A DNA stretch of 53,062 nt from an uncultured Porphyromonadaceae bacterium. Lineage in GTDB: Bacteria > Bacteroidota > Bacteroidia > Bacteroidales > UBA12481. Made by a program: the position numbers and the translations under genes. Location: the NCBI GenBank assembly GCA_964416825.1, contig CAYQFT010000003.1, positions 1-53,062 of the forward strand. Direction: 5' to 3'. The notes under the pieces were generated by a model. That model saw only the letters and a program-made list of their open reading frames with translations, was not told the DNA's origin and searched no databases. This document shows, in pieces, positions 4,496-47,614 of this stretch. Position 1 is the first letter of the stretch; each line of letters opens with the position of its first letter.

Positions 4496-4505
4496 TTATT
4501 TACAG

Positions 4506-7493
4506 ATGAAAGAGATTGTTCCATTGGATCCGCAAAGATCGGATTTCGGTGAAGCGGAATTTAAGTTCTTGATGCAGAGAAGGATCAATAAGGTTTTGAT
4601 CATTTGCAGTAATTATGATTTCTTCATGCTGGAAGAGGACGGTAGGATTGATGAGCAGATTTTCAATGAATATGTCTCTCTGAACCTCCGGTATCCTCCC
4701 GTCTTTATTCTGGCCAATACGGCCAGGAAGGCTTTTGATTACCTGGAGAGGGAGCATATTGACCTGGTTATCTCCATGCTGAGTGTCGGGGAAATGGATC
4801 CCTTTGAACTTTCCAAACGGATCAAGACAGAATACCCTCATATCCCGATTGTGGTCCTGACCCATTTTAGCCGGGAGGTATCGATTAAGCTGGAAAAGGA
4901 AGACCTGAGTGCCATAGACTATGTTTTTTCGTGGCTGGGCAACGCAGATCTGCTTCTGGCTATCATCAAGCTGATCGAGGACCGCATGAACCTGAACTAT
5001 GACGTTAATGAAGTTGGGGTTCAGATTATTATTCTTGTGGAGGACTCCATACGATATTACTCTTCTTTCCTGCCCGCCATCTACAAGATTGTTTTTAAGC
5101 AGAGCAAGTCATTCATGCAGGAAGGGCTGAACGAGCACCGGAAAATGCTCCGCATGCGGGGCCGCCCGAAGATTTTGCTGGCCACCAATTATGAACAGGC
5201 GATGCAATTTTTCATGGACTATAAGGATAGCACGCTGGGTATTATTTCTGACATTTCTTATATACGGGAAGGGAAGAAGGATCAGGAAGCCGGTTTGAAA
5301 TTCTGCAAGGCCGTAAGGGAACAGGATCCTTATGTTCCATTTCTTCTGCAATCTTCAGAGTTGTCAAATCAGGCAGCGGCATCAGACCTCAACGCAAGTT
5401 TTCTCCATAAATACTCCAAAACCCTGGAGATTGAACTCAGAAATTTCATGCTTCGTTACATGAATTTCGGCGACTTCATATTCAGGGATCCTGATACGAG
5501 GGAAGAGATCGGCAGGGCTACGAACCTGAAAGAGATGCAGGATATTATTCTCCAGATTCCAGCTCATTCACTGAAGTACCATTTCAATAACAATGACTTT
5601 TCCAAGTGGTTTAATGCCAGGGCCTTTTTTCAGATCGGCAGCCATTTGAAACATAAGTCTCTCGATTTTTTTGGGAGTGTGGAGGGAGGAAGGCAGTATA
5701 TCTTTAATATCATTTCAAGCTACCGGCTCTCAAAAGCACGTGGGGTGATTTCGACCTTTGACCGGACTCGTTTTGATGAATACATGCTCTTTTCAAGGAT
5801 CGGCGAGGGATCCCTGGGAGGCAAGGCGAGAGGGCTGGCATTTATCGATTCATTCATCAAGCAGAATGAGCTGGGAACCCGCTGGGATGGAGTTTTGGTC
5901 ACGATCCCCAGAACCGTAGTAATCTCTACAGAAGTATTCGAGGAATTCATGGACCTCAATAACCTGTGGCGGGTTGTAACGTCGAGGCTCAGCGATGAAC
6001 AGATCCTTCAGAGTTTTGTCAATGCCACCTTGCCAGTTCGGATTTACAAGGACCTTGAGGCTTTCATCAGGGTTATTAAGAATCCTATTGCAATAAGGTC
6101 GTCAAGCATGCTGGAGGATAGTCATTACCAACCTTTTGCCGGCATCTATTCTACCTTCATGCTTCCCAAGATTGATGGTGACAAGCAGAAAATGATCTAT
6201 ATGATAGCCGATGCGATTAAGTCGGTTTATGCATCGGTCTATTTTAAAAGTTCAAAAACCTATCTGGCTGCGACCCAGAATGTGATTGATGCCGAGCGGA
6301 TGGCGATCATTCTGCAGGAAGTATGCGGAAACCGTTACAATAACCGGTTTTATCCCACCTTATCCGGTGTTGCACGGTCAATCAACTTTTATCCGATTGG
6401 CAGAGAAAAGCCCGAGGATGGAATAGCCAACATCGCATATGGACTCGGTAAACTGATCGTAGAAGGTGGTACGGGCCTCCGCTTCTCTCCAAGGTACCCC
6501 GGAAAGATACTGCAGCTGTCATCGGTTGACAGCACCCTTAGGGAAACCCAGAGAGAGTTCTATGCACTTGACCTTGAGGCGGATCACTTCCACCCGTCAG
6601 TTGACGACGGGGTCAATCTATTTAAATTAAAAGTGAAAGAAGCAGAAGGGGATGCCGCATTGCGATTTGCAGCATCAATTTATGATATGAACAACGGAAT
6701 GATCAGGGATCAGTATTCTGAGACTGGGAAAAAGGTTATTACTTTCAACAATATATTGAAGCACAATACTTTTCCTCTTGCCGATATTCTCGACACACTG
6801 ATGCAGATTGGTGAAAAGGAGATGAATAATCCGATAGAGATGGAATTTGCAGTGAATCTGGATGTTCCTCCAGGGACCCCAAAGATTTTCAATTTTCTGC
6901 AAATCCGGCCGGTTGTTGAGAATACGGATGTCATCAATTTTAAGCTTGTGGAAGTAAATCAGGCAGAAACCATCATTAATTCCTTTTCTGCTTTAGGGAA
7001 TGGCCTGATTCGGGGCATCCAGGATTTTGTTTATGTAAAACCTGACTGTTTCAGGGCAGCTGACAGCATGACCATTGCAAGATGCGTAGAGTCGGTGAAT
7101 GACCGGTTTGTTGCATCGGGGAGCAATTATGTTCTGGTCGGCCCTGGCCGCTGGGGATCCAGTGATCCCTGGCTGGGAATTCCTGTTAAATGGCCGCAGA
7201 TCTCAGCTGCCCGGGTTATTGTGGAATCCGGACTGCCAGATTATCGAATTGATCCGAGTCAGGGAACCCATTTTTTCCAGAACCTAACTTCATTCCGCGT
7301 AGGTTATCTTACAATCAATCCCTTTATTAATGACGGGTTCTACGATCTGGAATTTCTAAATCGGCTTGAGTGCGTTACCGAGGATGAGTATATTCGTCAT
7401 ATCCGGTTTCCGGGACCCTTATTGATCAAAATAGACGGAGCCCGGAACAGGGGAGTTATTTATAAACCCAGCTTTGGTGATCAAAGTGGGTAG
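4506..7493 (+). CDS. Paralogue of the preceding gene: degenerate receiver, receiver-like domain, PPDK_N-type ATP-grasp, same C-terminal domain; lacks the extra N-terminal domain
   Basis: 995 aa, starting 10 nt after the previous stop. Motifs collinear with the upstream protein: SLGGKARGLAFI, IRSSSMLEDSHYQPFAGIYSTF, MAIILQEVCGN, FLQIRPVV, GPGRWGSSDPWLGIPVKWPQIS, GTHFFQNLTS. REC1 has DLVISMLS (Met at the acceptor position). REC2 has ILVEDS and GIISDISY. Confidence 0.7.
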   Translation: MKEIVPLDPQRSDFGEAEFKFLMQRRINKVLIICSNYDFFMLEEDGRIDEQIFNEYVSLNLRYPPVFILANTARKAFDYLEREHIDLVISMLSVGEMDPFELSKRIKTEYPHIPIVVLTHFSREVSIKLEKEDLSAIDYVFSWLGNADLLLAIIKLIEDRMNLNYDVNEVGVQIIILVEDSIRYYSSFLPAIYKIVFKQSKSFMQEGLNEHRKMLRMRGRPKILLATNYEQAMQFFMDYKDSTLGIISDISYIREGKKDQEAGLKFCKAVREQDPYVPFLLQSSELSNQAAASDLNASFLHKYSKTLEIELRNFMLRYMNFGDFIFRDPDTREEIGRATNLKEMQDIILQIPAHSLKYHFNNNDFSKWFNARAFFQIGSHLKHKSLDFFGSVEGGRQYIFNIISSYRLSKARGVISTFDRTRFDEYMLFSRIGEGSLGGKARGLAFIDSFIKQNELGTRWDGVLVTIPRTVVISTEVFEEFMDLNNLWRVVTSRLSDEQILQSFVNATLPVRIYKDLEAFIRVIKNPIAIRSSSMLEDSHYQPFAGIYSTFMLPKIDGDKQKMIYMIADAIKSVYASVYFKSSKTYLAATQNVIDAERMAIILQEVCGNRYNNRFYPTLSGVARSINFYPIGREKPEDGIANIAYGLGKLIVEGGTGLRFSPRYPGKILQLSSVDSTLRETQREFYALDLEADHFHPSVDDGVNLFKLKVKEAEGDAALRFAASIYDMNNGMIRDQYSETGKKVITFNNILKHNTFPLADILDTLMQIGEKEMNNPIEMEFAVNLDVPPGTPKIFNFLQIRPVVENTDVINFKLVEVNQAETIINSFSALGNGLIRGIQDFVYVKPDCFRAADSMTIARCVESVNDRFVASGSNYVLVGPGRWGSSDPWLGIPVKWPQISAARVIVESGLPDYRIDPSQGTHFFQNLTSFRVGYLTINPFINDGFYDLEFLNRLECVTEDEYIRHIRFPGPLLIKIDGARNRGVIYKPSFGDQSG

Positions 7494-7636: not shown

Positions 7637-8971
7637 ATGAACGTAGAAAAAATAATCATTGATCTTGAAAAGAAACACCCGGGTGAGGTGGAGTATCTTC
7701 AGGCCGTAAGAGAAGTTCTGGAATCCATCGAAGAGGTGTATAACCAGAATCCACAGTTTGAATCCGCAAAAATCATCGAACGGATGGTTGAACCAGACCG
7801 TATCCTGATGTTTAAAGTACCATGGACCGATGACCATGGTCAGGTTCAGGTTAACCTGGGCTACCGGATTCAATTCAACAATGCAATTGGGCCCTACAAA
7901 GGTGGATTGCGATTCCATCCAAGTGTAAACCTGAGTATTCTTAAGTTCCTCGGATTTGAACAGATTTTCAAGAATGCACTTACCACCCTTCCCATGGGCG
8001 GGGCTAAGGGCGGATCGGATTTCAATCCTAAAGGGAAATCCGATTCAGAAATCATGCGTTTCTGTCAGAATTTCATGCTTGAATTGTGGAAGATGATCGG
8101 TCCCGAAACCGATGTCCCGGCTGGTGATATCGGAGTTGGTGGCCGCGAAATCGGCTTCATGTATGGCATGTACCGGAAACTGGCCAGGGAGAACACAGGC
8201 GTTCTGACCGGTAAAGGTCAGGGCTGGGGCGGCTCATTGGTTCGCCCGGAAGCCACTGGTTTCGGAAACGTATATTTTGCAAATGAAATGCTGAAGACCA
8301 AAGGCGAGACCTTTGCCGGAAAAACTGTTGCCATCTCCGGATTCGGCAACGTAGCCTGGGGTGCTGCACTGAAGGCTACCGAACTGGGCGCAAAGGTTGT
8401 AACGATTTCAGGTCCTGATGGTTATGTTTATGATCCGGATGGAATCAAGGGGGAGAAAATTGAGTATATGCTCGAACTTCGTGCTTCGAATAACGACGTA
8501 GTTCAGCCTTACGCACTTGAGTTCGGCGTAGAATTCCATCCTGGAAAGCGTCCGTGGGAAGTTAAATGCGATATCGCACTGCCATGTGCTACACAGAATG
8601 AGCTTGACAAGCAGGATGCCTTGAATCTGATCGCCAATGGCTGTATATGTGTGAGTGAAGGAGCTAATATGCCTTCAACACCAGCTGCCGTTGAGGTGTT
8701 CCATCAGTCAAAAATTCTGTTTGCACCTGGTAAGGCAGCCAATGCCGGCGGTGTTGCCACATCAGGCCTCGAAATGTCGCAAAACTCAATGAAACTGAGT
8801 TGGTCGCGTGAAGAGGTTGATGCCAAACTGCACCAGATTATGAAGGACATTCACCGCCAGTGTGAAATCAATGGTAAGCAGGCCGACGGTTACGTTGATT
8901 ACGTAAAAGGAGCCAACATTGCCGGATTCCTGAAGGTAGCAAATGCTACTCTGGATCAGGGGGTAATCTAG
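7637..8971 (+). CDS. gdhA: NAD(P)-specific glutamate dehydrogenase
   Basis: 444 aa. Hallmark motifs: KGGLRFHPSVNLSILKFLGFEQIFKNALT and PMGGAKGGSDFNPKGKSD. Rossmann segment: GFGNVAWGAA. Confidence 0.95.
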   Translation: MNVEKIIIDLEKKHPGEVEYLQAVREVLESIEEVYNQNPQFESAKIIERMVEPDRILMFKVPWTDDHGQVQVNLGYRIQFNNAIGPYKGGLRFHPSVNLSILKFLGFEQIFKNALTTLPMGGAKGGSDFNPKGKSDSEIMRFCQNFMLELWKMIGPETDVPAGDIGVGGREIGFMYGMYRKLARENTGVLTGKGQGWGGSLVRPEATGFGNVYFANEMLKTKGETFAGKTVAISGFGNVAWGAALKATELGAKVVTISGPDGYVYDPDGIKGEKIEYMLELRASNNDVVQPYALEFGVEFHPGKRPWEVKCDIALPCATQNELDKQDALNLIANGCICVSEGANMPSTPAAVEVFHQSKILFAPGKAANAGGVATSGLEMSQNSMKLSWSREEVDAKLHQIMKDIHRQCEINGKQADGYVDYVKGANIAGFLKVANATLDQGVI

Positions 8972-8973
8972 GA

Positions 8974-9001
8974 GACGGACGACAGAAGACGGACGACGGA
9001 T
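8974..9001. repeat. Heptanucleotide tandem array (4 units)
   Basis: GACGGAC GACAGAA GACGGAC GACGGAT, in strict 7-nt phase. It starts 3 nt after the gdhA stop codon. Confidence 0.7.
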
Positions 9002-9002
9002 G

Positions 9003-9043
9003 AAAAAAACAGGCGTTCCCGGGTGGGGACGCCTGTTTCTTTT
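9003..9043. terminator. Bidirectional rho-independent terminator between convergent gdhA and fabD
   Basis: 9-bp stem AACAGGCGT / ACGCCTGTT around a 12-nt loop. An A run lies on the left and TTCTTTT on the right. Confidence 0.75.
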
Positions 9044-9055
9044 GGTATAAATAAC

Positions 9056-9943
9056 CTATTGAATTTTGGCGCTTTCGGTTTCGACCGAGCGGTCGACTTT
9101 TTTAATCAGGCCTTGCAGAACGGTTCCGGGGCCGACTTCGATGAATTTGGTAGCGCCGTCGGTAATCATGTTCTGAGCGGTTTGCGTCCAGCGGACAGGA
9201 CTTGTAAGCTGGCTGACCAGGTTCGTCCGGATAACTGCCGGATCGGTAACTGGCAGAGCATTGACATTTTGATAAACCGGGCAAACCGGGGCAACTATGG
9301 GTGCTTCTTCAATGGCTTTGGCTAGTTCTGCTCGTGCGGGTTCCATAAGCGGAGAGTGAAACGCTCCACCTACCTGAAGTTTCATGGCGCGCTTCGCACC
9401 CAGCTCGGTCAGCCTGGCAATGGCTTTGTCGATCCCTTCATGGGATCCTGATATTACGATCTGTCCCGTGGTATTGTAATTGGCAGGGACAACGACTTCT
9501 GTAATCTCGGAGCAGACTTTTTCAACAACTTCATTTTCCACTCCCAGAATTGCTGCCATCGTAGAAGGTTCGATCTCGCAGGCTTTCTGCATGGCCATGG
9601 CCCGCTTTGAAACCAGCCGCAGTCCATCCTCAAAGCTCAGGGCACCGGCAGCGGTAAGGGCGGAGAACTCACCAAGACTGTGTCCGGCTACCATATCGGG
9701 ATTAAACTGATCACCAAGAACTTTGGCCAATATCACTGAATGCAGGAAAATTGCCGGCTGTGTTACCTTGGTCTGTCTCAGATCCTCTTCTGTTCCGTTA
9801 AACATAATATCAGTGATGGGAAAGCCCAGTATCTCATCAGCCTTGTGAAATAATTCCCGGGCTTGCTCCGAAAAATCATACAGGTCCTTTCCCATGCCGG
9901 GAAACTGCGCTCCCTGTCCGGGAAAAACAAATGCTTTTTTCAT
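9056..9943 (-). CDS. fabD: Malonyl-CoA:ACP transacylase
   Basis: 295 aa. Motifs: FPGQGAQFPGMGKDLY, active-site GHSLGEFSAL, GGAFHSPLM. Confidence 0.93.
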   Translation of the reverse strand: MKKAFVFPGQGAQFPGMGKDLYDFSEQARELFHKADEILGFPITDIMFNGTEEDLRQTKVTQPAIFLHSVILAKVLGDQFNPDMVAGHSLGEFSALTAAGALSFEDGLRLVSKRAMAMQKACEIEPSTMAAILGVENEVVEKVCSEITEVVVPANYNTTGQIVISGSHEGIDKAIARLTELGAKRAMKLQVGGAFHSPLMEPARAELAKAIEEAPIVAPVCPVYQNVNALPVTDPAVIRTNLVSQLTSPVRWTQTAQNMITDGATKFIEVGPGTVLQGLIKKVDRSVETESAKIQ

Positions 9944-9995
9944 GTCAGGATGGTTTACGTTAAGCGCCGCAAAAATAGAAAAATTCCCATAGAGG

Positions 9996-10622
9996 CTAAT
10001 GCAGCCTGTAGTTTATCAGATGGATGAACTCTTCGCGCGTGGCGGTTCTTAGGAACGCACCCGTAAAATCGGAAGTTGTTGTCACTGAATTTTGCTTCTG
10101 CACACCGCGCATCTGCATGCACATGTGCTGAGCCTCTATGACAACCGCGACGCCCAATGGCTGAAGGGTGTCCTGTATGCAGTCGCGGATCTGCGTGGTA
10201 AGCCTCTCCTGCACCTGCAGCCGGCGGGCATAGGCGTCAACAACCCTGGCAATTTTACTGAGTCCGGTTACATGTCCGTTAGGGATATATGCAACATGGG
10301 CCTTTCCGAAAAATGGGAGGAGGTGGTGCTCACAAAGGCTGTATAACTCGATGTTTTTCACGAGGACCATCTGCCGGTAGTCTTCATGGAAGGTGGCCGA
10401 TTTCAGCATCTCAACAGGATCCATCTTGTAACCCTGAGTAAAGAACTGCATGGCTTTGGCTACCCGCGTAGGAGTTTTCAGCAACCCTTCACGTTCTGAG
10501 TCCTCACCGAGCAGATCGAGAATTTTCTTATAATGCTCGGCTATTTCCAATGTTTTTTCATCATCGTAGCGTTCAATTTTCTGATAGCCGTTGCCATTCA
10601 TTTCATTCAGGGTGATTTCCAT
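9996..10622 (-). CDS. folE: GTP cyclohydrolase I
   Basis: Motifs: [37 protein letters not shown]. The ORF is open to 10697, but the Met at 10622 (MEITLNEM...) gives a typical length. Start is uncertain. Confidence 0.9.
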
Positions 10623-10711
10623 TTTCTTAGTTTTTGACTGGATGTTAGGACAAAGTAAGGACATTTTTAGTTCAGAAGAGTTATCTTCGGTAACCATATA
10701 TCCTCCTATTG

Positions 10712-11365
10712 ATGAGCCGCCTTTTAGTAATACCCACCATGACCGAGGCAGCGGAACTGATCAGGACCGCAGGATTCAGACAGGTCGGGGTTCCTGGCTT
10801 CTTTGAACTTCCGGGCACCGACTGGAATCTGATGATTGCCGGCATCGGCACGGTGCCTGTTATTTATAACCTGACCCGGCATTTCGCTACTGCACGGTAT
10901 GAAAAAGTCATCCATGCGGGTATTGCGGGCAGCTATTTCCTGCCGCTCCAGCCGGGGGAAGTTGTCCAGGTAACGCGCGATACCTTTGCGGATGTGGGGA
11001 TCGATCACGGAGGAATCTTCAGGTGGATTTTTCACGAAGGTTTGTGGAACCCGGAAGAGAAACCTTTCCGGTTTGGATGGATGGAAGTGCCGGAGGATCC
11101 CTCCCTGAATCTGGAATGTGTCAGCAGTATCACCGTTGACCTGGTTACGGCAAGCCCAGAGAGGAAGGCCCGGATGATTGATAAATTTAATCCCCAGGCC
11201 GAAACCATGGAAGGCGCCGCTGTTTTTTATGTCTGCCTCAAGGAGGATATCCCTGTGATTCAAATAAGGGCAATCTCCAACTACACAGGCATTCGCGACC
11301 GGAAGAGCTGGAAAGTCGAAGAAGCCATTGACTCATTAACGAATGTTTTAACCAAACTCCTATGA
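10712..11365 (+). CDS. mqnB: Futalosine hydrolase-like nucleosidase (PNP/UDP_1 fold)
   Basis: About 217 aa. Small nucleosidase-like protein ([32 protein letters not shown]) directly followed by and overlapping mqnD. First ATG at 10712; the ORF track starts at TTG 10709. Confidence 0.7.
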
Positions 11366-12192
11366 AAATCAGGATCGGATACAGCACCTGTCCGAATGAT
11401 ACCTTCATCTTTGATGCCCTGGTGAACGGGAAAATCGATACTGAAGGCATAACGTTTGTCCCATACCTGAATGATGTAGAGGAACTTAATCTCCTTGCAT
11501 TCAGGGGTGAACTGGATATTACCAAATTGTCTTATCATGCCTGGCTGCACGTGTGGAAAGAGTATGTCATCCTCGAGTCAGGTAGTGCCCTGGGGCGCGG
11601 AAATGGCCCGGTCCTGGTAGCCAGGGATCAGTGCCTCGATCCACGTTACCTGAGCCTTACAGTGGCTATCCCGGGTGAGTATACAACCGCGAATCTTCTG
11701 CTACGGATGGCGTATCCTACCATCACCGAGAAAAAGTCTTTTGTTTTTTCAGATATTGAACAAGCCATTCTTGACCGGAAGGTGGATGCCGGGGTTCTGA
11801 TTCATGAAAATCGATTCACCTATTCGAAAAAGGGACTGGTCCTACTGAAGGATCTGGGCCAGTTTTGGGAGGAAACCACCTCTGCTCCTATACCGCTCGG
11901 CGGAATCATGGCCCATCGCAGACTAAGGCCTGATCTTATCCGCACCATTGACGGGCTGATCAAAAAAAGCCTCATGGTGGCCTTGAGGAATCCGGAGGGA
12001 GCTGTCCCCTACATGCGGAAATTTGCTCAAACTATTGAGCAGGACGTGATGGATGCTCATATTAAGGCGTTTGTTACAGAAAACACCATAGCCCTTGGAA
12101 CCGAAGGGAGAAATGCAATCCGGATCCTCATTGAGAAATCTCTGTCAGCTGGTTTGATTAACGAAGAACCAGCTGAGATTTTCAATCAATAA
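11362..12192 (+). CDS. mqnD: 1,4-dihydroxy-6-naphthoate synthase (futalosine menaquinone pathway)
   Basis: 276 aa. The N-terminus [26 protein letters not shown] is characteristic of MqnD/VitK2_biosynth. 4-nt overlap with mqnB. Confidence 0.8.
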   Translation: MKIRIGYSTCPNDTFIFDALVNGKIDTEGITFVPYLNDVEELNLLAFRGELDITKLSYHAWLHVWKEYVILESGSALGRGNGPVLVARDQCLDPRYLSLTVAIPGEYTTANLLLRMAYPTITEKKSFVFSDIEQAILDRKVDAGVLIHENRFTYSKKGLVLLKDLGQFWEETTSAPIPLGGIMAHRRLRPDLIRTIDGLIKKSLMVALRNPEGAVPYMRKFAQTIEQDVMDAHIKAFVTENTIALGTEGRNAIRILIEKSLSAGLINEEPAEIFNQ

Positions 12193-12200
12193 GAAGCTTA

Positions 12201-14420
12201 ATGGGCAGGCGATCAGGTTATCAAGCTTATCCTTGGTTCACGCTTAGGGCACCTTTGTTGCCCGTCGACGCATTGAAAGGAATCCCTGAGAGTCCGCTGG
12301 AACTTGACGGTTTTTTGCGGCCCATTTTCTCAAATCCCTTGGTTTCCGAGGCTTTATTGCTTGGCAGCTTTGATTTCCAGCAGGTTCTTTTCAATGAATT
12401 TCGCAACGCTCCTGAAGGGAAGGCTGATTATCGGATTCTGATATCCTTTCTCCGGTATTTTTGCCGGATGTCATCACGCTGCACCCCGTTTGGAACCTTT
12501 GCAGGGTTTGCTACCGGGTTGCTGTCGGGCCAGACAGATATAAAGATCGACCATCCGGAGAAGCACGGAGTGTATATCCGGCCGGATATGGAATACCTGA
12601 TGAGTGCGGCTAGGTACCTTGCCTCCAGTCCTGAAATCAGGGAATCCCTCTTATTTACGCCAAATACCAGCCTTTACCGGGTTGGCAGCCGCTGGCATTA
12701 TGTTCAGACCAACCCATCGTTGGCCGGAAGAAACAATGTTTATGATGTGGTGACGGTAGAGGATGCCGGAATTCTGAAGTCGCTGCTGGAATTTTGCCAT
12801 GCAGGACGTAAGTTGCACGATATCAAAGAATATCTGAATGCCGGAGGATGGGATGGGGGAGAGATAAACGACTATGTAAGTGCACTCACTATGGAACAGG
12901 TCCTTGTGAGCCAGTTGGAACCCGTTGTTTGCGGAAAGCAATACTTTGACGGACTTCTGAAGCTGATGGAATATGCTTTTCCTGAAAATGAAAAAATCCA
13001 GCCCCTTAGAAGCATTCACAGATTGCTGACTGATATTGCACATCCCGGCGACATTTCGCCGCTCAGAAACCGGTTATCCACAGAAGCGCGTAAGATTCCG
13101 GTTCCGGTCAATGAGAGTCACCTGATCCAGGCTGATATGAACCTGAGTTTTTCCAATCTAGAATTGGACCGGAACCTTGCCAACCAGATTCTCCTTGGGA
13201 TCAGGATTTCCCGGGCATTGTCGGTGAACCGACGGGCGGACCCTTTGGAGAAATTCCGGGAAGCTTTCATCAAACGATACGGAGAGCGGGAAGTTATGCT
13301 GGTGAAGGTTCTTGACCCTGAAACCGGTATCGGGCTGGAGGGGTCCGTTGAGAACTATTGGACCGATCCCGTGCCTTGGATCGATGACCTGCGCTGGGGG
13401 CCGGGATTCAGTACCCCATCCGTTTCCAAGGAGTCCGGACATACGTGGCTGGTTTCCCGGTTGTTTAAAACCGTCGCAGCCGGAGATTTATATCTTGATA
13501 TTCAGCAGCATGACATTCAGGATCTGGATATTCATTCCGGAATCTGGCCGGACCAGATCTGGGCCTTTGTTGAATTGCTCGATCCCGATAGTGAGGGCAG
13601 GAATCAGGTATATCTCAGCCTTAGTTCTCCCGGACACCCTGCTGCCATTCTTGGACGGTTTGGGTTTGCAGATCCGGCCAACACCATCGATTGGATGAAT
13701 CGGCTTATCCGGGATGAAACAGACCAGAACCCGGAAAAAATCTATGCCGAAGTCGTTCACCTGCCCGAGGATCGCACCGGCAATGTCTTGCAAAGGCCAT
13801 CCTTCTACGAGTATGATATTCCTTACCTCGCACGCTCCGAAAAACCGGCGGAGAAGCAAATCAGGGTTTCCGATATACTTGTTTCGGTCAGGAACGACCG
13901 GGTTGTGCTAACCTCTGCAACCACCGGGAGAGAGATCGTTCCAAGAATGACCAATGCCTACAATCACAATCTGGGTAATTTACCGGTATATAAATTTCTG
14001 CATCGCGTTCAACTTCAGGAAAACCTGAACGCCTGGCTTCCCTCATGGGGCGATGCTGCCAGAATGCTTTCTTATACTCCCGGCATACGTTTCCGCAATC
14101 TGATTCTGCTTGCTCCCTCATGGACTTTCAGAACGACTGATCTTGAACATTGGATCTCCATTGCCAAACAGAGCGTTGACATGGAATCTTTACTGAAGTG
14201 GAAGGAGTCCCGGTTTATGCCGGATGAGATGGTTTGGATGCACGGCGATCAGGATCTGTATTTTGACTGGAGGAACGCAAACCTGATATTGGCTCTCTGG
14301 GATGTTATTCATGGCTTTCCGTCAGTGACAGTCAGGCCATTTTATGCCCGATCGACCCCGGCGATGGGTTCTTCAGGAACCTTTGCCAACCAAATCGTAC
14401 TAGGTTATAAACAGGAATGA
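12201..14420 (+). CDS. Lantibiotic dehydratase, N-terminal (glutamylation) part of a split LanB
   Basis: 739 aa. Motifs: FTLRAPLLPVDAL near the N-terminus and RMSSRCTPFGTFAGFATG, both typical of Lant_dehydr_N. Starts 8 nt after the mqnD stop. Confidence 0.85.
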   Translation: MGRRSGYQAYPWFTLRAPLLPVDALKGIPESPLELDGFLRPIFSNPLVSEALLLGSFDFQQVLFNEFRNAPEGKADYRILISFLRYFCRMSSRCTPFGTFAGFATGLLSGQTDIKIDHPEKHGVYIRPDMEYLMSAARYLASSPEIRESLLFTPNTSLYRVGSRWHYVQTNPSLAGRNNVYDVVTVEDAGILKSLLEFCHAGRKLHDIKEYLNAGGWDGGEINDYVSALTMEQVLVSQLEPVVCGKQYFDGLLKLMEYAFPENEKIQPLRSIHRLLTDIAHPGDISPLRNRLSTEARKIPVPVNESHLIQADMNLSFSNLELDRNLANQILLGIRISRALSVNRRADPLEKFREAFIKRYGEREVMLVKVLDPETGIGLEGSVENYWTDPVPWIDDLRWGPGFSTPSVSKESGHTWLVSRLFKTVAAGDLYLDIQQHDIQDLDIHSGIWPDQIWAFVELLDPDSEGRNQVYLSLSSPGHPAAILGRFGFADPANTIDWMNRLIRDETDQNPEKIYAEVVHLPEDRTGNVLQRPSFYEYDIPYLARSEKPAEKQIRVSDILVSVRNDRVVLTSATTGREIVPRMTNAYNHNLGNLPVYKFLHRVQLQENLNAWLPSWGDAARMLSYTPGIRFRNLILLAPSWTFRTTDLEHWISIAKQSVDMESLLKWKESRFMPDEMVWMHGDQDLYFDWRNANLILALWDVIHGFPSVTVRPFYARSTPAMGSSGTFANQIVLGYKQE

Positions 14421-15250
14421 ATCAAAAAACAATCAGATATGTTCCCGGATCTTCCTGGTTGTACCTTAGGTTCTACGGAGGTACGCAGGCATTGGAAGAG
14501 TGGCTGACCGGTCCCTTTGAGCTGCTGCTTCAACCCTGGCTTGCAGCGGGTTCAGTTGAAAGTTTTCACTTCATCCGATACCTGGATCCGGATTACCACC
14601 TGCGGATCCGCCTTAGGCTGGCCGACCCGGTAAAAAGCGGTGAGGTCCTGACTTCCATCAGCAGAAGCTGCCAATCTTTTCTTGACCATGACCTGATATG
14701 GAAAGTGGAGGCGGGGACCTATGAGCCTGAAACCGAACGGTACGGTGTCAATCGTATGGAACTTGTTGAGGAGTGGTTCTTCATTGATTCTGTTTTCTGG
14801 CTCGGTGCAATCAGAAATTCCGAAGAGGATAATGATAACGACCGTTGGCATAACGGTGCCTGCCGGATAGATTGGCTGTTAAATCAATTTGGAGCCACAG
14901 CAATTGAGAAGTCGGTATTGCTGAACCGAATGCGGGAGGCCCTGTCGGCCGATTTCCATCTCTCACGATCCATGAAGAACCAGCTGGATATAAAATACCG
15001 CACTCTTTCGTCAGAACTCGAATCCTCTCTTCGAAATGCCATAAGAACCAATGAACACCTTCAGGTTCTTACTGATCTAAAGGCAACCTATGCTGACCAT
15101 GAAGCCATGATCCGCTCCAATCTGGTTCCCGACCTTGTTCACATGACCCTCAACAGGGCTTTCCGCACCCGGCACCGGCTGCAGGAGATGGTGCTGTATG
15201 ATTTTCTTGGGAGGTACTATCGCTCGGCGATGGCGAGAGCTAAGATTTGA
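14417..15250 (+). CDS. LanB C-terminal (glutamate elimination) domain protein, also called thiopeptide-type bacteriocin biosynthesis domain
   Basis: 277 aa. Motifs WLYLRFYGG and FHFIRYLDPDYHLRIRL are typical of Lant_dehydr_C/SpaB_C. ATGA overlap with the upstream dehydratase gene. Confidence 0.85.
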   Translation: MNQKTIRYVPGSSWLYLRFYGGTQALEEWLTGPFELLLQPWLAAGSVESFHFIRYLDPDYHLRIRLRLADPVKSGEVLTSISRSCQSFLDHDLIWKVEAGTYEPETERYGVNRMELVEEWFFIDSVFWLGAIRNSEEDNDNDRWHNGACRIDWLLNQFGATAIEKSVLLNRMREALSADFHLSRSMKNQLDIKYRTLSSELESSLRNAIRTNEHLQVLTDLKATYADHEAMIRSNLVPDLVHMTLNRAFRTRHRLQEMVLYDFLGRYYRSAMARAKI

Positions 15251-15348
15251 TTAGTGATTAGTGATTAGTGATTAGTGACTAGTCCTAACCTACTATTCAC
15301 CATTCACTATTCACCATTCACTATTCACTATTCACCATTCACTATTAC
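15251..15348. repeat. Two opposed heptanucleotide arrays
   Basis: TTAGTGA x4 (15251-15278) begins 1 nt after the stop codon. After a 14-nt spacer come 8 units of CTATTCA/CCATTCA (15293-15348). In another phase the second array reads TCACTAT/TCACCAT, which is 6/7 or 5/7 identical to the reverse complement (TCACTAA) of the first. This gives a long imperfect hairpin. Confidence 0.85.
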
Positions 15349-15422
15349 CTCTGCTGAACAATTATTGTCCATTAGTTGTTATTAAGACATATTCTAAGTA
15401 ACAATAACCAGGAGGAAAAAGA

Positions 15423-16022
15423 ATGTCATTCAAATTGCCCGATTTACCTTATGCTTATGATGCATTGGAGCCATATATCGATGCACGTACAATGGAGATT
15501 CATCACGGCAAGCATCATGCTGCCTACACGAATAACCTGAATAACCTTTTAGCCGGCACTGATGCCGATACCCTTACGATTGAGCAAATCCTTGCTGAAG
15601 TTTCCAAGCACCCAATGGGTGTTCGGAACAATGGCGGTGGGTTTTACAATCACAACCTTTTCTGGAACAATCTATCGCCGAATGGTGGTGGAAAGCCGAC
15701 CGGTGACCTGATGAAGGCCATTGAAACAGATTTTGGGTCTTTCGAAGCTTTTAAAGAGAAATTCTCAACGGCAGCTGCAACACGTTTTGGGTCGGGCTGG
15801 GCCTGGCTGGTTGTTGCTGACGGGAAACTTGTTGTTACCTCCTCCCCGAATCAGGACAATCCCCTGATGGATATAGCTGATGTTAAGGGTACGCCGATAT
15901 TAGCTCTCGATGTTTGGGAACATGCCTACTACCTTCACTATCAGAACCGGAGGCCGGAGTATATCGATGCTTTCTGGCACCTGGTGGACTGGAGCGAGGT
16001 TAGCCGGCGGATGGGTAAATAG
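15423..16022 (+). CDS. Fe/Mn-family superoxide dismutase, cytoplasmic type
   Basis: 199 aa. Motifs: [52 protein letters not shown] lies 8 nt upstream of the ATG. Confidence 0.95.
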
Positions 16023-16057
16023 TTACTGGTTGCTGGTTACTGGTTGCTGGTTTAGGG
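16023..16057. repeat. Heptanucleotide tandem array (5 units)
   Basis: TTACTGG TTGCTGG TTACTGG TTGCTGG TTTAGGG, beginning 1 nt after the SOD stop codon. Confidence 0.8.
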
Positions 16058-16065
16058 TATGCGGT

Positions 16066-16086
16066 CCCCGCTTTCGCGGGGATGAC
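16066..16086. repeat. REP-like GC hairpin CCCCGC-TTTC-GCGGGG followed by ATGAC
   Basis: 6-bp GC stem with a 4-nt loop. A near-identical element, CCCGGC-CTTC-GCCGGG-ATGAC, recurs at 19720-19740. Confidence 0.7.
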
Positions 16087-16088
16087 CT

Positions 16089-16114
16089 GTAGAGACGCAT
16101 AAATGCGTCTCTAC
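16089..16114. terminator. Perfect 12-bp palindrome, likely a bidirectional terminator or REP-like element
   Basis: GTAGAGACGCAT-AA-ATGCGTCTCTAC lies between the convergent SOD and DUF2961 genes. A related element with core GGACGCAT-GT-ATGCGTCC is at 18407-18424. Confidence 0.65.
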
Positions 16115-18105
16115 TAGGGTAATAGTTCTAAGATGATTTCAATCAGCGAAAGGTTTTTGCCGGAAAGCCGGAAGTAGACAACGTTGTTGCCCTGGACGGC
16201 ATTGAGTGTGCCGATCGGGAGGATGGGGCTGATGGCGGTCTCGGGGGCGTCAAGGTCGACCGGCTTGCCGAGAGGTTTATCGTGCTGCCGGGCCTGCAGG
16301 CTTCCCATATCGGGGCCTTGGATTGCTTTAACGCTGATCTGATATTTTCCGGCTTCTGGGAGATCGAGTATGAACGAAACCTCATGGGCACCAAAAACAT
16401 CCGAATTGGTTGTTTTCAGGGTAAAGCAGCGAACGCGGCCGGTTCCTACCTTCACGCTTCCTTTCTCAATCACAGCATTCTGTAGCGGGGTGGTGTGAGT
16501 CGGGACATTCCATCCGGGCACAAAAACAACTTTTTTCGGCGCGGTGATTCGGCGGTCGGCAAAATCAGGCAAGGGAACATTGGCAGAGGGTTTTTCTGTT
16601 GAATAATAGTACGTTACGCTGGTATAATCCGTGGTTTCGGCATTTCCTTCCGGCCCATGCTCGATGGTATAATCAATATTCCTGCGGAAAACATAGGTAT
16701 CCGGGATCATCCACCGGTAACCTCCGGTTCGTCCCATAGGTTTCTTGTAATCCAGGCAACCGCTGAGCGGGAATGATGCCCGTTCTTCCCAACGAGCTGG
16801 GACATCGTACCAGCCTCCATTGAAGGAATCCTCGGAGCCGGTTCCGTGGATGGCCATCTCGCCATCGATCATCACAATATCATCCCCTTCGAAGAATGTA
16901 GTGCCGCCCGGGTTAAAGCCCTGGGCCTGAAGGGAAACACCGATTACATGGCCGTTACCGGTAGTATTCAGGTAGGTAAAGGGTTTACCGGTGGTGCAGG
17001 GGTTTTCCCTGTTCCATTGACAATAGAAATACCCTTCATCGGCTTTTTTACCGTTCCGGGCAAAAACAACCTCTGCATCTACCGGTATGGCCGGGCCTGA
17101 TGTATTCTCCTGAACCAGCTCTACCCGCACTGATTTTGAGAAAGGCATCGGGAGATACAGGTAGTTGACGTTATTGCTGGTGCCTGTAAAAAGTGATTTA
17201 GTAGCCGGTTCCCCGAAACTGTAGCCAAAGAGATCGGCAACCGGACAGGTAACCGAGGGTAACGATTCTCCCTCATAATAAATATTGAGGACTGCATCCT
17301 TCCGGAGTCCGGCAAACTGGGAAGCAGGTCCCAGCTTAATTCCCAGAATCCTGCCGGGCTTGTTCATCTTAAAGATTTCCAGAGGCTTGCCCGGTGCGGC
17401 AGTTCCACTGATTTTCTTTGATTCAGGCTGGATTCCTGGCCCAGCCAGATACGAGGATATATCCGTTCCGGCGGAATTCAGGATTTTACCGGCTTCCTCA
17501 ATTTTCCGCAGCCACTCCAGTGACGGTGGATTCTGATAGGTCTGGATAAGGGTATTGGCCGGATATTTTACGTAATTGAGATCATAAAAGGTAAACACGG
17601 GACAATCCCTGATCATAATCTTGCAGGAATATTGGTATGAAATCGGGACATAGGTATAATAGCCTCCCACCCCCGACCCGGTTAGCGGTTCCAGGAAAGG
17701 CAGGTGCTTGCCGTCAAAATACTCCTTGATTTTCAGGCTGATTCGTGGTGTTTTTTCCCCATCGAGATAAAACTCCATGTAACCCTCCTGCGGATCCGGC
17801 ATGTGGATGCGGGTCACCACACCAGGCCCCTCCATTTCGGCGATGACAAGCTGATCCCCTTCTTTGCGCAGGTACGAATACTTCCCGCTAAAGCCGTCGT
17901 CGTTCCCGCCAGACCTATCGTAGCTTGTAAATGCCCCGGTTTGGACCTGTGTTTTGATTGTCGGTAGCAGGTCGAGCCGAAGCAGTGCCTCTATCCCGAT
18001 GGGTTGAACGGTTGAAATGGATTGTGCTTGTTGAGCCAGGGCGTCAGATGTACAGGCCAGGGCCGGCAATATGGCCAGGGAGAAAAGAATTCTGAGAAGT
18101 TTCAT
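16114..18105 (-). CDS. Secreted DUF2961 (GH172-like) family protein
   Basis: 663 aa. N-terminal signal peptide MKLLRILFSLAILPALA. The GPGVVTRIHMP motif and overall beta-rich composition resemble the DUF2961 family. Assignment made from memory of the family motif. Confidence 0.55.
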   Translation of the reverse strand: MKLLRILFSLAILPALACTSDALAQQAQSISTVQPIGIEALLRLDLLPTIKTQVQTGAFTSYDRSGGNDDGFSGKYSYLRKEGDQLVIAEMEGPGVVTRIHMPDPQEGYMEFYLDGEKTPRISLKIKEYFDGKHLPFLEPLTGSGVGGYYTYVPISYQYSCKIMIRDCPVFTFYDLNYVKYPANTLIQTYQNPPSLEWLRKIEEAGKILNSAGTDISSYLAGPGIQPESKKISGTAAPGKPLEIFKMNKPGRILGIKLGPASQFAGLRKDAVLNIYYEGESLPSVTCPVADLFGYSFGEPATKSLFTGTSNNVNYLYLPMPFSKSVRVELVQENTSGPAIPVDAEVVFARNGKKADEGYFYCQWNRENPCTTGKPFTYLNTTGNGHVIGVSLQAQGFNPGGTTFFEGDDIVMIDGEMAIHGTGSEDSFNGGWYDVPARWEERASFPLSGCLDYKKPMGRTGGYRWMIPDTYVFRRNIDYTIEHGPEGNAETTDYTSVTYYYSTEKPSANVPLPDFADRRITAPKKVVFVPGWNVPTHTTPLQNAVIEKGSVKVGTGRVRCFTLKTTNSDVFGAHEVSFILDLPEAGKYQISVKAIQGPDMGSLQARQHDKPLGKPVDLDAPETAISPILPIGTLNAVQGNNVVYFRLSGKNLSLIEIILELLP

Positions 18106-18310
18106 GGTTGTTTAGTCTACGTAGGTTTGACGTATTTATTTCAAATGCATGATCACAATAATCTGATTTTCCTCGCCCGTTGATTTCTCTATATAATTCA
18201 GCAGCTGATCCCGTTTCTCCGGCATCAGAAGAACAGAGAACAGGAGTAGCGTGCGGAGTTTCATGAAGGCAGGATTGCGCCTTATAAATGTAGGGAAAAT
18301 CCTGAAAGTT

Positions 18311-18424
18311 GCGCCCTTGCAGGGCGCTGGAAAAGATTTAATGGGGCGGGGGAGGCCTCCGGCTGCGCCGGAGGGTACTCAGATGCCGCCCCTGCGGGGC
18401 TGAGAAGGACGCATGTATGCGTCC
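18311..18424. repeat. Cluster of four short GC-rich hairpins
   Basis: GCGCCCT-TGC-AGGGCGC (18311-18327), CCTCCGGC-TGC-GCCGGAGG (18356-18374), GCCCC-TGC-GGGGC (18388-18400) and GGACGCAT-GT-ATGCGTCC (18407-18424). Three of the four share a TGC loop. Confidence 0.75.
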
Positions 18425-18460
18425 CTACAGCTGCCTCGCCACAAATAACGTGTTTCGGTT

Positions 18461-18509
18461 CACGGGTCACGTGTCACGTTTTCCGCGTCACGCATCACGC
18501 GTCACGATC
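18461..18509. repeat. Heptanucleotide tandem array (7 units) overlapping the stop codon of the homocysteine methyltransferase gene
   Basis: CACGGGT CACGTGT CACGTTT TCCGCGT CACGCAT CACGCGT CACGATC, all in 7-nt phase. In the gene's sense orientation the unit is CGTGACG, the same unit as at 52890-52924 and 19680-19700. Confidence 0.8.
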
Positions 18510-19386
18510 TTGCCACATCCCGCATCCGCCTGATATGCGCCGGCGTGGTGCCGCAGCAGCCGCCGATAATGTTGGCGCCGGCCTGGATAAGGCGGGGAAC
18601 GTAAGAGGCGGTGATTTCGGGAGTTTCACTGAAAACGTTCTTGCCGTCGTGGAAGTGGGGCAGGCCGGCATTGGCATGGACCAGCACGGGGATTGCCGGA
18701 TCGATTTTTCGGATCAGCTCAACGATCGGGATCATGTTTTCCATTCCGTTGCCGCAGTTGGTTCCGATTATATCTGCACCGGCTTCTTTCAGTGCAACTA
18801 CCATTTCTTCAGGTGAAACGCCCATCATGGTGCGGAAATCGCCCTGAATGGTTTTGTCGAATGTCATGGTTGTGATGACTGTCAGATCGGTATTTTCTTT
18901 GGCTGCCCGGGTGGCAATTGTGGCTTCGTCGAGGGCGGTCATGGTTTCAATGCAGATGACATCGGCACCCGCTTCGGCCAGGGCCACGCACTGTTTCTTA
19001 AAGCCTTCGTATAATTCTTCTTCAGTAACGTCTCCCATCATGAGAAGAATTCCGGTGGGACCAACGGATCCCAGAACGATCCGGTCGGGACCAATGGCCC
19101 GCCGGGTGATTTCAACGGCTTTGCGGTTGAGTTCCACAACCCGGTCCTGTAATCCGTAATGGCTCAATTTGAAGCGGTTACCGCCAAAAGTGTTTGTTTC
19201 CACGGCATCCGAGCCTGCTTCGGCATAGGCTCGGGCTATGGCTTCAACTTTATCCGGGAAATCGGCATTCCAGGTTTCCGGACAAACGCCGGGCTCGAGG
19301 CCCGCAGCCTGCAGCATGGTTCCCAGGGCGCCGTCAGATATCAGGATTCCGCCACTTTTCAGTCGGTCTATGATTGAGTGTGCCAT
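18502..19386 (-). CDS. Stand-alone homocysteine S-methyltransferase domain protein (MetH N-terminal-module-like, zinc-dependent)
   Basis: 294 aa. Motifs: ISDGALGTML, GTNCGNG and GGCCGTTPAHI, which are the Cys ligands of the Hcy-binding zinc site. No pterin-binding or B12 domains in the same polypeptide. Confidence 0.85.
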   Translation of the reverse strand: MAHSIIDRLKSGGILISDGALGTMLQAAGLEPGVCPETWNADFPDKVEAIARAYAEAGSDAVETNTFGGNRFKLSHYGLQDRVVELNRKAVEITRRAIGPDRIVLGSVGPTGILLMMGDVTEEELYEGFKKQCVALAEAGADVICIETMTALDEATIATRAAKENTDLTVITTMTFDKTIQGDFRTMMGVSPEEMVVALKEAGADIIGTNCGNGMENMIPIVELIRKIDPAIPVLVHANAGLPHFHDGKNVFSETPEITASYVPRLIQAGANIIGGCCGTTPAHIRRMRDVARS

Positions 19387-19387
19387 A

Positions 19388-20350
19388 TCAGTTCTTTTTT
19401 TGTAAAGCTAAAAACTGTTTCGAGAATTCCCGGTTATTGAGATCGGGGCCCAGGGCAATCAGCTCTGTTGGGCCGTCATAGCCGGTGATGGTTAGTATTT
19501 GAATCTGATCGAAAACGCATTGGATAGCAAGGGTTTCCTGCAGGTTGATACGGATGTAGCCTTTCAATCGGTACAGGTACGGAGATTTGTCAGCAATAAA
19601 ATTTTTAACCGCTTCCGGGTCGAAATAGCGGTTGGAGCGGACGACGCAGGAGCCGATATTTGGTCTTGGCTCCGAGTCCGCGTCACGCGTCACGCGTCCC
19701 GGATCGTTGGCGGGGAGATCCCGGCCTTCGCCGGGATGACAAAGCAGGTGAAGGAGATCGATCTGGTTTGTGGCGCCAAACGTTGTTTCGATGATGTCGG
19801 CGAAAGGGTTTATCTCGACAATTCGCTTTTTTATCAGAGAAACGTCGCTGACAAGATCGGTTTTGTTGATCCAGATGAGGTCGGCGATGCGGATCTGGTG
19901 GCGGGAGCGGGAGACGGTGTCGATGATTTTGTGGAAGTTGGCGGCGTCGACGATGCACCAGGAGGCGGCGAGATAGATTTTGTCGGTGAGCTTATCGGAA
20001 TGGATGATCTGACCGAGTGAGATGGGATCTGCGAGACCCGTGGCTTCGAGCAGGATCACATCGGGATGAACCTGATTGATAAAGGGTTCCAGCCGGTCGA
20101 TGAAGTCGCTGAGCAGACAGGCGCAGAAGACGCTTCCGTTGTTAATCTCGAGGAGTTCGAAGGGCTCTTCTGAACGGCGTAGTGTGATTCCGTCGGTGTG
20201 CCCGGGGGCGAACTCATTCTGCACAATTGCCAACCGAAGACCGCCGGAATACTTCTTTACGAGATCCAGCAGCAGCGTGGTTTTGCCGCTGCCCAGGAAC
20301 CCGGTTATCAGAATAAACGGTACCTTTTTCAGAGAATCTCCTTGATCCAT
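19388..20350 (-). CDS. CobW/COG0523-family G3E GTPase (putative metallochaperone)
   Basis: 320 aa. Motifs: P-loop GFLGSGKTTLL, EATGLADP, INKTDL, and a CobW_C-like C-terminus. The expected GCxCC metal motif reads SVFCACLL. The linker contains repeat-derived sequence (see findings). Confidence 0.8.
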   Translation of the reverse strand: MDQGDSLKKVPFILITGFLGSGKTTLLLDLVKKYSGGLRLAIVQNEFAPGHTDGITLRRSEEPFELLEINNGSVFCACLLSDFIDRLEPFINQVHPDVILLEATGLADPISLGQIIHSDKLTDKIYLAASWCIVDAANFHKIIDTVSRSRHQIRIADLIWINKTDLVSDVSLIKKRIVEINPFADIIETTFGATNQIDLLHLLCHPGEGRDLPANDPGRVTRDADSEPRPNIGSCVVRSNRYFDPEAVKNFIADKSPYLYRLKGYIRINLQETLAIQCVFDQIQILTITGYDGPTELIALGPDLNNREFSKQFLALQKKN

Positions 20351-23027: not shown

Positions 23028-23701
23028 CAGGCTATATGTTTGTTCAGGAATTCAACGGCTCCCTGCGGATCCGGTGAATACCAGTCGGCCCCTATGCGAA
23101 CCCTGAAATCATCGGTTACCGGCGCACCACCGACAAGAATTTTTGTATCAGGTTTTGCAGCCTTGATCTCATGAACAATCTTTTCCATATTGAGCATGGT
23201 GGTTGTGAGCAGGCAGCTCAGGCCAATAAATGCTCCCGGGTGCTGATCCACTGCGGCCATGAATTTGGCAGCAGGAACGTCGATGCCAAGGTCGACAACT
23301 TCCCAGCCTGCACCTTCAACGATCATGCCAAGCAGGTTTTTACCGATGTCATGGAGGTCCCCCATGACCGTACCGATAATGAAAACGCCTTTACGCTTTA
23401 CTGCACCCGACTGAAAATAGGGCTTAAGGTGCTTCATCCCTGCGCTCATGGATTTGGCTGCCATTAAAACTTCGGGAACGAAAACCTTGTTTTCACGAAA
23501 TTTTACTCCAATAATCTGCATGCCGGGCACCAATCCCTTCTGCAGCACCTCATCTGCCGGAATTCCGGCAGCAAGAGCCTGAACGGTAAGTTCATCGGCA
23601 CCGTCCTGTTCTTTCATATCGGGTGGGAAAGGAGAGGTTTTATTAACTTTACCTCTTTCAACGCATTTTGCAATCTTGGCAAGTAATTCTTCAGGGTTCA
23701 T
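23027..23701 (-). CDS. Corrinoid (cobalamin-binding) methyl-carrier protein
   Basis: 224 aa. B12-binding_2 cap followed by a Rossmann domain with DxHxxG (GDLHDIGKNLL), SCLLTTTM and VGGAPV motifs. Confidence 0.9.
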   Translation of the reverse strand: MNPEELLAKIAKCVERGKVNKTSPFPPDMKEQDGADELTVQALAAGIPADEVLQKGLVPGMQIIGVKFRENKVFVPEVLMAAKSMSAGMKHLKPYFQSGAVKRKGVFIIGTVMGDLHDIGKNLLGMIVEGAGWEVVDLGIDVPAAKFMAAVDQHPGAFIGLSCLLTTTMLNMEKIVHEIKAAKPDTKILVGGAPVTDDFRVRIGADWYSPDPQGAVEFLNKHIA

Positions 23702-23747
23702 TCTCGTAAAATTTAGTTGATCACAAATATATAAATCCTGTTCTGAT

Positions 23748-24326: not shown

Positions 24327-24594
24327 CAACAGGTTTTTATAACGGGTTGAAAAGCAGAAGTTTAACAGCCACAAGGTGGTATTGTTAATAATTCAGACTG
24401 TTAATTAGTGAAATTAATTTGGCAGCTTATGATTTTGAGTTTATCTTTATCATGCAAAAGGTTAGACAGGAAGGAGCCTTTGAGAAAAGGAATTCAGACA
24501 AGGGATTTTTAGGCTTAGTTGCAATAACTTCTTTCTTCTCACTTCTTCTTATCTGTAAGGTGGTTCTTGATTGTGGGGACATGATAGGTGATGT

Positions 24595-47539: not shown

Positions 47540-47569
47540 CAATCCTGATAAAAATTAGGATTTGTGATA

Positions 47570-47597: not shown

Positions 47598-47614
47598 ACC
47601 ATAATTGAAACAAT

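Follow-up and report, generated by a model that had tools for sequence, protein, structure and literature searches.

We analyzed a 53,062-nt stretch of DNA (the window) from an uncultured Porphyromonadaceae bacterium (contig CAYQFT010000003.1, positions 1 to 53,062), in which two genes of the futalosine pathway for menaquinone, mqnB and mqnD, are followed directly by two genes for a split lantibiotic dehydratase (LanB): lanBN, which encodes the glutamylation protein, and lanBC, which encodes the glutamate-elimination protein. With moderate confidence, we propose that LanBN and LanBC are an accessory, catalytically competent Ser/Thr dehydratase that acts in trans, that this dehydratase comes from a Bacteroidota class I lanthipeptide enzyme, and that its genes were inserted once 3’ of mqnB-mqnD and are expressed from the mqn promoter. 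A distal precursor is most likely the substrate, and the link to menaquinone is best read as positional rather than biochemical.

The four genes lie on the plus strand. The first, mqnB (10712–11365), encodes a 217-residue futalosine hydrolase that matches PF01048 and scores 130 bits against TIGR03664 (cutoff 124.7); its true start is the ATG at 10712, which has an in-frame TTG just before it at 10709. The second, mqnD (11362–12192), encodes a 276-residue protein that matches PF02621 (E 2e-63) and whose homologues carry the source name 1,4-dihydroxy-6-naphthoate synthase. We also considered that this protein might be MqnA, a chorismate dehydratase, which would hint at redundancy with the ‘dehydratase’ encoded downstream, and rejected the assignment: the closest solved structure is Thermus MqnD TTHA1568 (2czl/3a3u; E 1e-61), and no MqnA structure was found at E ≤ 0.01. 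With orthologues of both MqnB and MqnD, the operon qualifies as a futalosine operon. The third gene, lanBN (12201–14420), encodes 739 residues that match PF04738 (E 1e-105) over 643 of 649 model positions. The fourth, lanBC (14417–15250), encodes a separate, adjoining protein of 277 residues that matches PF14028 (E 1e-51) and TIGR03891 (161 bits, cutoff 48). The first-pass annotation had assigned both proteins to LanB from the motifs FTLRAPLLP, RMSSRCTPFGTFAG, WLYLRFYGG and FIRYLDPDYHLRIRL; all four are found in the translations, and the strong profile matches bear the assignment out. It had also described the junctions, and recomputed coordinates gave the same result: mqnB and mqnD overlap by 4 nt (11362–11365), 8 nt separate the mqnD stop at 12192 from the lanBN start at 12201, and lanBN and lanBC share a 4-nt overlap of the ATGA type (14417–14420). 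This spacing of –4, +8 and –4 nt suggests that the four genes are co-transcribed.

Next, we asked how widely this arrangement is conserved. A search of 5.8 billion proteins with LanBN as the query returned a family of 733–743 residues, plus a few shorter or partial members, with 33–78% identity and from Bacteroidales or Bacteroidota metagenome-assembled genomes (MAGs). We fetched 80 one-genome-per-species contigs and 80 metagenomic loci (numbered with the prefix L), took organism names from the MAG records, and scored neighboring genes by tblastn. Loci whose LanBN is at least 33% identical to that of the window were placed in group A (the window, L001–L004, L007, L010–L024, L031, L094–L100, L102 and L174), and those at 24–32% in group B. 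The order mqnB-mqnD-lanBN-lanBC was present in every group A locus with upstream DNA, 28 including the window and some duplicate assemblies; L022, L024 and L102 begin within lanBN, so their upstream regions could not be scored. The adjacency is therefore not unique to this contig, which was the comparison set in advance by the first-pass annotation. The misassembly at 12190–12200 that it had allowed for is excluded as well, since numerous independent assemblies share the mqnD-lanBN junction and GC content shows no break there. Gaps in the subclade that contains the window (A1) are –4, 8–12 and –4 nt, and the gap ahead of lanBN widens to 26–93 nt in L017 and in a second subclade (A2), while the ATGA overlap of lanBN and lanBC is present in all group A loci. 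A superoxide dismutase (SOD) gene follows the operon in most members. Partner genes of the kind that accompany RiPPs (peptides made on the ribosome and modified after translation) were not found within 10 kb in any group A member.

Group B members come from Flavobacteriia, other Bacteroidales, Sphingobacteriia and a few others, and in most of these loci LanC is encoded directly upstream of lanBN. None of these roughly 140 other Bacteroidota split-LanB loci has mqn genes within the fetched DNA. Two candidates for a second menaquinone link, near the LanB genes of L005 and L008, were rejected: a PNP_UDP_1 gene encodes an AMP nucleosidase (NF005500, 417 bits), and a ‘UbiE-like’ methyltransferase reached no NCBIfam cutoff. 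The L005 locus (8776–21883) carries LanC-lanBN-lanBC together with a C39-ABC exporter and an HlyD-family adaptor, and LanC-lanBN-lanBC is also present in L008, L034 and L086. Our literature search found no description of futalosine or mqnD genes linked to a LanB or lantibiotic dehydratase, in keeping with the earlier impression that the linkage is undescribed.

To compare active sites, we aligned LanBN and LanBC to NisB and tallied residues over 18–19 group A and 59–66 group B sequences. The residues that we take, from the mutagenesis literature, to be catalytic in NisB all have equivalents. For glutamylation, NisB Y80, R83, R87, T89, D121, D299 and R464 correspond to Y86, R89, R93, T95, D129, D312 and R486 of LanBN, which are invariant across group A. 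For elimination, NisB R786, E823, R826 and H961 correspond to R65, E105, R108 and H242 of LanBC, which do not vary in any of the 18 group A or 59 group B sequences. H242, in the motif VHMTLNR, is presumed to be the counterpart of H961 because of the conserved HxxxNR motif, as it falls beyond the printed alignment. All eleven catalytic residues are thus unchanged in all group A members.

An AlphaFold2 model of LanBN (pLDDT 85, pTM 0.84) was then compared with known structures using Foldseek. MadB and NisB were the top matches, and with MibB they gave TM-scores of 0.79–0.83 at 18–20% identity in the structural alignments; TM-scores for the thiopeptide and goadsporin enzymes TbtB and GodF were 0.63–0.65. 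The counterpart of the NisB leader-binding region (LanBN residues ~150–240) is full length and equally conserved in groups A and B, and residues ~164–237 of the model form strands followed by three helices. The predicted fold is therefore NisB-like and includes a putative leader-binding winged-helix region. In each respect examined, by sequence and by structure, the protein pair is a split LanB, and LanBN and LanBC appear to be catalytically competent and peptide-directed. LanBN probably depends on Glu-tRNA(Glu).

The window lacks the usual partners of such an enzyme. A Pfam scan of its 39 large open reading frames (ORFs) found no LanC (PF05147), YcaO, C39 peptidase or bacteriocin-type ABC exporter. 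Its only ABC system is a solute-binding-protein/permease/ATPase-TOBE importer (46589–52864), and it also has a MatE gene (42702–44156). LanC was detected by tblastn in most group B loci but in zero group A loci. Leader peptidases or exporters (C39-ABC, LanT, LanP) were found neither in the window nor within 10 kb in the gene lists of L001–L004 and L007. For precursors, we used a regular expression that combines a GG cleavage site with LxLxKx5L, the leader motif of Bacteroidetes (Walker et al., 2020; PMC7268733), and took the group B loci as the positive control. Most group B loci yielded canonical MKK...LxLxK...GG precursors with Cys/Ser/Thr-rich cores, while neither the group A loci nor the window yielded anything precursor-like. 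A looser filter for GG and Ser/Thr/Cys content gave no local precursor either. The first-pass annotation, which had noted the lack of a cyclase, YcaO, peptidase or exporter, and precursor in the window, was correct on each of these, and neither the window nor group A, having no LanC, LanA or protease/exporter, can be classed as a class I lanthipeptide gene cluster.

Further searches for a substrate or partner were also negative. None of the small intergenic ORFs of the window was precursor-like in tblastn against relatives, and the only ones conserved past the closest relatives lie inside one non-coding conserved element. Among these candidates, a 51-codon ORF on the minus strand (24427–24582) was rejected as a conserved gene because it contains 1-, 2- and 4-nt indels between species in DNA that is otherwise conserved at the nucleotide level. 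Genes 3’ of lanBC in subclade A2 (L007, L019–L021, L024) were rejected as partners too: they encode lipoprotein-like ORFs, MatE and VTC and differ by locus, so there is no conserved partner among them. PADLOC returned zero anti-phage defense matches for LanBN or LanBC, and the window contains no Rfam family at the gathering score and no tRNA genes. Other Bacteroidota loci nevertheless make a distal substrate plausible. In the Flavobacteriia, L060, L067 and L082 have a split LanB without LanC, together with local GG-leader precursors, some with few or no Cys. The LanC-linked Bacteroidales clade of L005, L008, L034 and L086 has no recognizable local precursor under the filters used, and trans-encoded precursors may therefore be common in Bacteroidales LanB systems.

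We reconstructed the history of the operon from neighbor-joining trees with BLOSUM distances. The LanBN tree recovered group A, which comes only from Bacteroidales MAGs, as monophyletic (21 of 21 sequences), with A1 and A2 (L007, L019, L020, L021 and L024) as its subclades, and its branching order agrees with a tree of FolE, FabD and MqnD (778 columns). Midpoint rooting placed group A opposite all other LanBN proteins, and the tree did not settle its sister group. Three relatives lack lanB genes. The outgroup L092 has the same synteny, with mqnB-mqnD, a minus-strand MatE gene and the SOD gene; L090, again with the same synteny, has mqnD followed 114 nt later by the SOD gene; and L093 has mqnD alone. 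These loci, and the lack of mqn genes in group B, show that LanB is not a regular companion of mqn genes. L090 is the sister of A1 with 100% bootstrap support and so falls within the A1+A2 clade, which implies a secondary loss of LanB. The mqn-LanB linkage has a single evolutionary origin. The simplest history would be one insertion just 3’ of mqnD before A1 and A2 split, then vertical descent with at least one loss.

The lanBC gene of L013 and L100 is cut after ~20 codons (12220–12290 and 6567–6640, respectively), and LanBN is intact at 740 residues. Unrelated genes, including ORFs of 120, 142, 320 and 495 residues, follow the truncation and are possibly an integrated element; the two loci are 99.9% identical across 6.1 kb. 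Elsewhere both genes have diverged under constraint. Between the window (A1) and L007 (A2), identity is 33% for LanBN, 51% for MqnD and 85% for FolE. In unsaturated pairs, the ratio of nonsynonymous to synonymous substitution rates (dN/dS) was 0.16–0.22 for lanBN and 0.16–0.27 for lanBC, and it was 0.02–0.05 for fabD, folE, mqnB and mqnD in the identical genome pairs. Both lanBN and lanBC are under purifying selection.

These results fit into a working model. The lanBN-lanBC pair would have been inserted once 3’ of mqnD in the ancestor of an uncultured anaerobic Bacteroidales lineage and inherited vertically from then on as the promoter-distal half of one transcript with mqnB-mqnD, so that its expression would ride on a housekeeping promoter. 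With Glu-tRNA(Glu) as co-substrate, LanBN would esterify Ser/Thr side chains in a peptide that bears a leader, and LanBC would eliminate the glutamate to leave dehydroalanine (Dha) or dehydrobutyrine (Dhb). With no cyclase or precursor in cis, we propose that this LanB works in trans, that its target is a peptide or protein whose gene lies at another site, and that its role is an accessory one.

The closest known counterparts are the split LanBs of Bacteroidota class I lanthipeptide systems (pinensin-type; PMC7268733). They come from the same phylum, are 27–32% identical to LanBN over its full length, and have in common with it the PF04738 plus PF14028 two-protein layout, the ATGA-type overlap and all catalytic residues. 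Most of their loci, however, have LanC adjoining lanBN and 1–11 Cys-rich precursors with LxLxKx5L/GG leaders, and some, such as L005, have a C39-ABC exporter; within 10 kb, group A lacks all of these, and it is instead found inside the mqnB-mqnD operon and altered at 17 conserved positions. The window LanB shares its fold, catalytic residues and leader-binding region counterpart with NisB, MadB and MibB (PDB 4wd9, 9g05 and 5ehk), but those are single polypeptides with adjacent LanC and LanA, whereas here there are two polypeptides. TbtB/TbtC and GodF/GodG are likewise split and LanC-independent, but their systems need YcaO-type azoline formation and clustered precursors, and the window has neither. 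PEARLs are small LanB-like peptide aminoacyl-tRNA ligases with the LanB glutamylation-type fold. Their fold and use of aminoacyl-tRNA are comparable to those of LanBN, but they come without a domain or partner for elimination and extend a scaffold peptide by amino acids, whereas lanBC here is conserved with its catalytic residues intact.

Several observations weigh against a trans-acting lanthipeptide-type dehydratase. Our search yielded no substrate in the window or in the group A loci, and we assume that its gene lies at another site. It is atypical of a RiPP pathway for the dehydratase to be constitutively tied to a housekeeping operon and to lack a cyclase, protease or exporter in its vicinity. 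Group A also departs from LanC-linked group B at 17 otherwise conserved positions. Beside the catalytic Arg, group B has GGSSAANLxGRFCH and group A has xGxPxxxLGRFGF, and such substitutions could mean a different kind of substrate. The putative leader-binding region of group A has K179 in place of R and Y181 in place of H, and has lost the conserved A222. Taken together, the group A substitutions would also fit a changed substrate or leader. That LanBN and LanBC carry out tRNA-Glu chemistry unrelated to lanthipeptides is a speculative alternative.

A functional coupling to quinone or redox physiology would explain the operon link as shared function, with LanB either acting on a small molecule or modifying a component, protein or peptide, of the respiratory chain or the menaquinone pathway. 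The short 8–12 nt gap and the ATGA overlaps were kept while LanBN diverged to 33% identity, which speaks for this, as do the lack of RiPP partners within 10 kb, the group-specific substitutions next to the catalytic Arg, and the SOD gene that comes next in most members. We nevertheless think it unlikely. The linkage arose once and has no parallel among the other split-LanB loci; L090 and L092 keep mqnB-mqnD without LanB, and one lineage lost lanBC; the lanB genes have dN/dS 4–8 times that of the mqn genes; and the supposed second link in L005 and L008 fell away. The futalosine pathway is, moreover, biochemically complete without a LanB-type enzyme. As the linkage has a single origin, is absent from the other split-LanB loci and is dispensed with in syntenic relatives that have mqnB-mqnD, we read it as positional. 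For the same reasons, and given the residues and fold of a peptide dehydratase, a functional tie to menaquinone is not supported. A related idea, about which we are similarly doubtful, is that group A LanBN and LanBC, rather than serving natural-product synthesis, are a housekeeping-style, constitutive dehydratase that introduces Dha or Dhb into a cellular protein or peptide of quinone, respiratory or oxidative-stress physiology; this would account for the long translational coupling to mqnB-mqnD, usually beside sod.

The genes might instead be the decaying remnant of a lanthipeptide cluster that lost LanC and LanA, with the dehydratase persisting only through its place in a selected transcript. 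The absence of LanB from L090 inside the clade (implying loss), the truncated lanBC of L013 and L100, evolutionary rates far above those of neighboring genes and the lack of partners nearby would all be expected of a remnant. However, more than 20 lineages, with divergence down to 33% identity, have kept both frames intact, dN/dS lies well under 1, none of the eleven catalytic residues varies in any member, and the length of complete group A LanBN proteins is held tightly to 733–743 residues, so we regard decay as quite improbable. More improbable still is a dispersed pathway of the thiopeptide or goadsporin (linear azoline-containing peptide) type, or a PEARL-like one, with the other enzymes encoded elsewhere. 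Thiopeptide and goadsporin pathways typically have split LanBs, TIGR03891 is named ‘thiopeptide-type’, and LanC is absent from the window. The closest sequence relatives are nonetheless LanC-linked lanthipeptide enzymes, the LanBN model resembles MadB and NisB more closely than TbtB or GodF, and no YcaO or related azoline-forming gene has a Pfam match in the window. A PEARL would have no elimination partner, and here an intact, conserved one is encoded in overlap with lanBN. The trans-acting dehydratase remains the reading we prefer.

We also examined the two ends of the operon. Upstream, folE is divergent from mqnB. Its homologues in relatives encode 208 residues, which puts the likely folE start near 10622, ~89 nt ahead of mqnB; we presume that the intergenic region (10623–10711) holds the operon promoter. 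A scan for sigma-70-type promoters found 6 promoter-like sites compared with 7.3 in shuffled sequence, using a model unsuited to Bacteroidota, and the only match to TAnnTTTG lies within mqnB. A scan for terminator-like sites found 10 compared with 6.0 (SD 2.2) in shuffled sequence. Downstream, the 172-nt spacer after lanBC (15251–15422) is filled by the heptamer arrays (TGATTAG)x5 and (ACTATTC)x8 as identified by TRF. Its sole ORF is a 36-codon, GTG-initiated one built of repeats, as expected from the earlier description of a heptamer-filled region with no notable ATG-initiated ORF. The arrays (15248–15346, plus strand) lie at the 3’ end of the operon and can fold as RNA into a long imperfect hairpin (–29.9 kcal/mol, z –5.25) that may act as a terminator or RNA stabilizer. 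The nearest relatives have different 7–8-nt arrays at the matching position 3’ of the operon, so the array sequence itself is not conserved.

Such 7–8-nt tandem arrays fill intergenic spacers more generally: in the window at 15248–15346 and 52890–53000, in L010 at 13060–13215 and in L011 at 13055–13200. At the one position compared among these three closest genomes, the units are TGATTAG and ACTATTC in the window, GTGACCA, GTGACGC and CCCCTGTG in L010, and GGTTGCC, CCCCACA and CCCTATGC in L011. The arrays at the end of the window (52890–53000) are similar, with units of GTGACGC and CCCCTATG. They appear to be a fast-evolving class of repeats.

Other parts of the window have features of their own. 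Upstream of the operon, two adjacent giant proteins of 1166 and 995 residues (995–7493) have a weak response-regulator receiver domain and a PPDK_N (PEP-utilizing, ATP-binding) domain, and are kept upstream in relatives, including the LanB-less L092. On the other side, a minus-strand cluster adjoins the operon (18502–24326, with a plus-strand nitroreductase gene next at 23748–24326), and every A1 relative has it in synteny. Its products are a homocysteine S-methyltransferase-like protein, a protein of the CobW family, a corrinoid-binding protein and two URO-D/MtaA-like methyltransferases, one of which carries a fused thioredoxin-like domain. As a set, the minus-strand genes resemble a system for methyl transfer or demethylation that depends on corrinoids. 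Between the nitroreductase gene and a second SOD gene (24627–25367, minus strand) lies a conserved spacer (24442–24626) with 80–86% nucleotide identity in 14 related loci. Its last ~86 nt (~24541–24626) are near-invariant in 9 species in which synonymous sites of the neighboring genes are saturated, and it ends in a bidirectional terminator hairpin, AAAAAAGGCGGCTCCCAACCGCCTTTTT. The reading frame is not conserved, so the spacer is not coding; it matched no Rfam family at the gathering score, with only sub-threshold matches at E < 1, and may encode a small RNA on the plus strand. Finally, an unannotated 67-codon ORF on the minus strand (38174–38377) has a Gly-Gly end and looks by eye like a ThiS/MoaD-type sulfur carrier. 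Its neighbors include a gene for a tungsten-type aldehyde:ferredoxin oxidoreductase (40431–42587), a DUF364 gene, and the ABC importer at 46589–52864, which is of the tungstate/molybdate type.

LanB enzymes are known from self-contained RiPP clusters. Here, a whole clade carries one without neighboring partners, in an operon of primary metabolism and under purifying selection. It is of interest mainly because an orphan LanB clade has been conserved within a housekeeping operon, and it is not evidence of new chemistry. A survey of human-associated Bacteroidales genomes reported LanB to be absent from the order (PMC10352776), whereas our data show that LanB genes are present in environmental Bacteroidales. 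If the substrate is a distal peptide, this would clearly exemplify a class I dehydratase that works in trans, one that cluster-based mining with antiSMASH or RODEO would overlook or list as lacking a core peptide. With a substrate other than a classical precursor, Glu-tRNA-dependent dehydration would reach beyond natural products.

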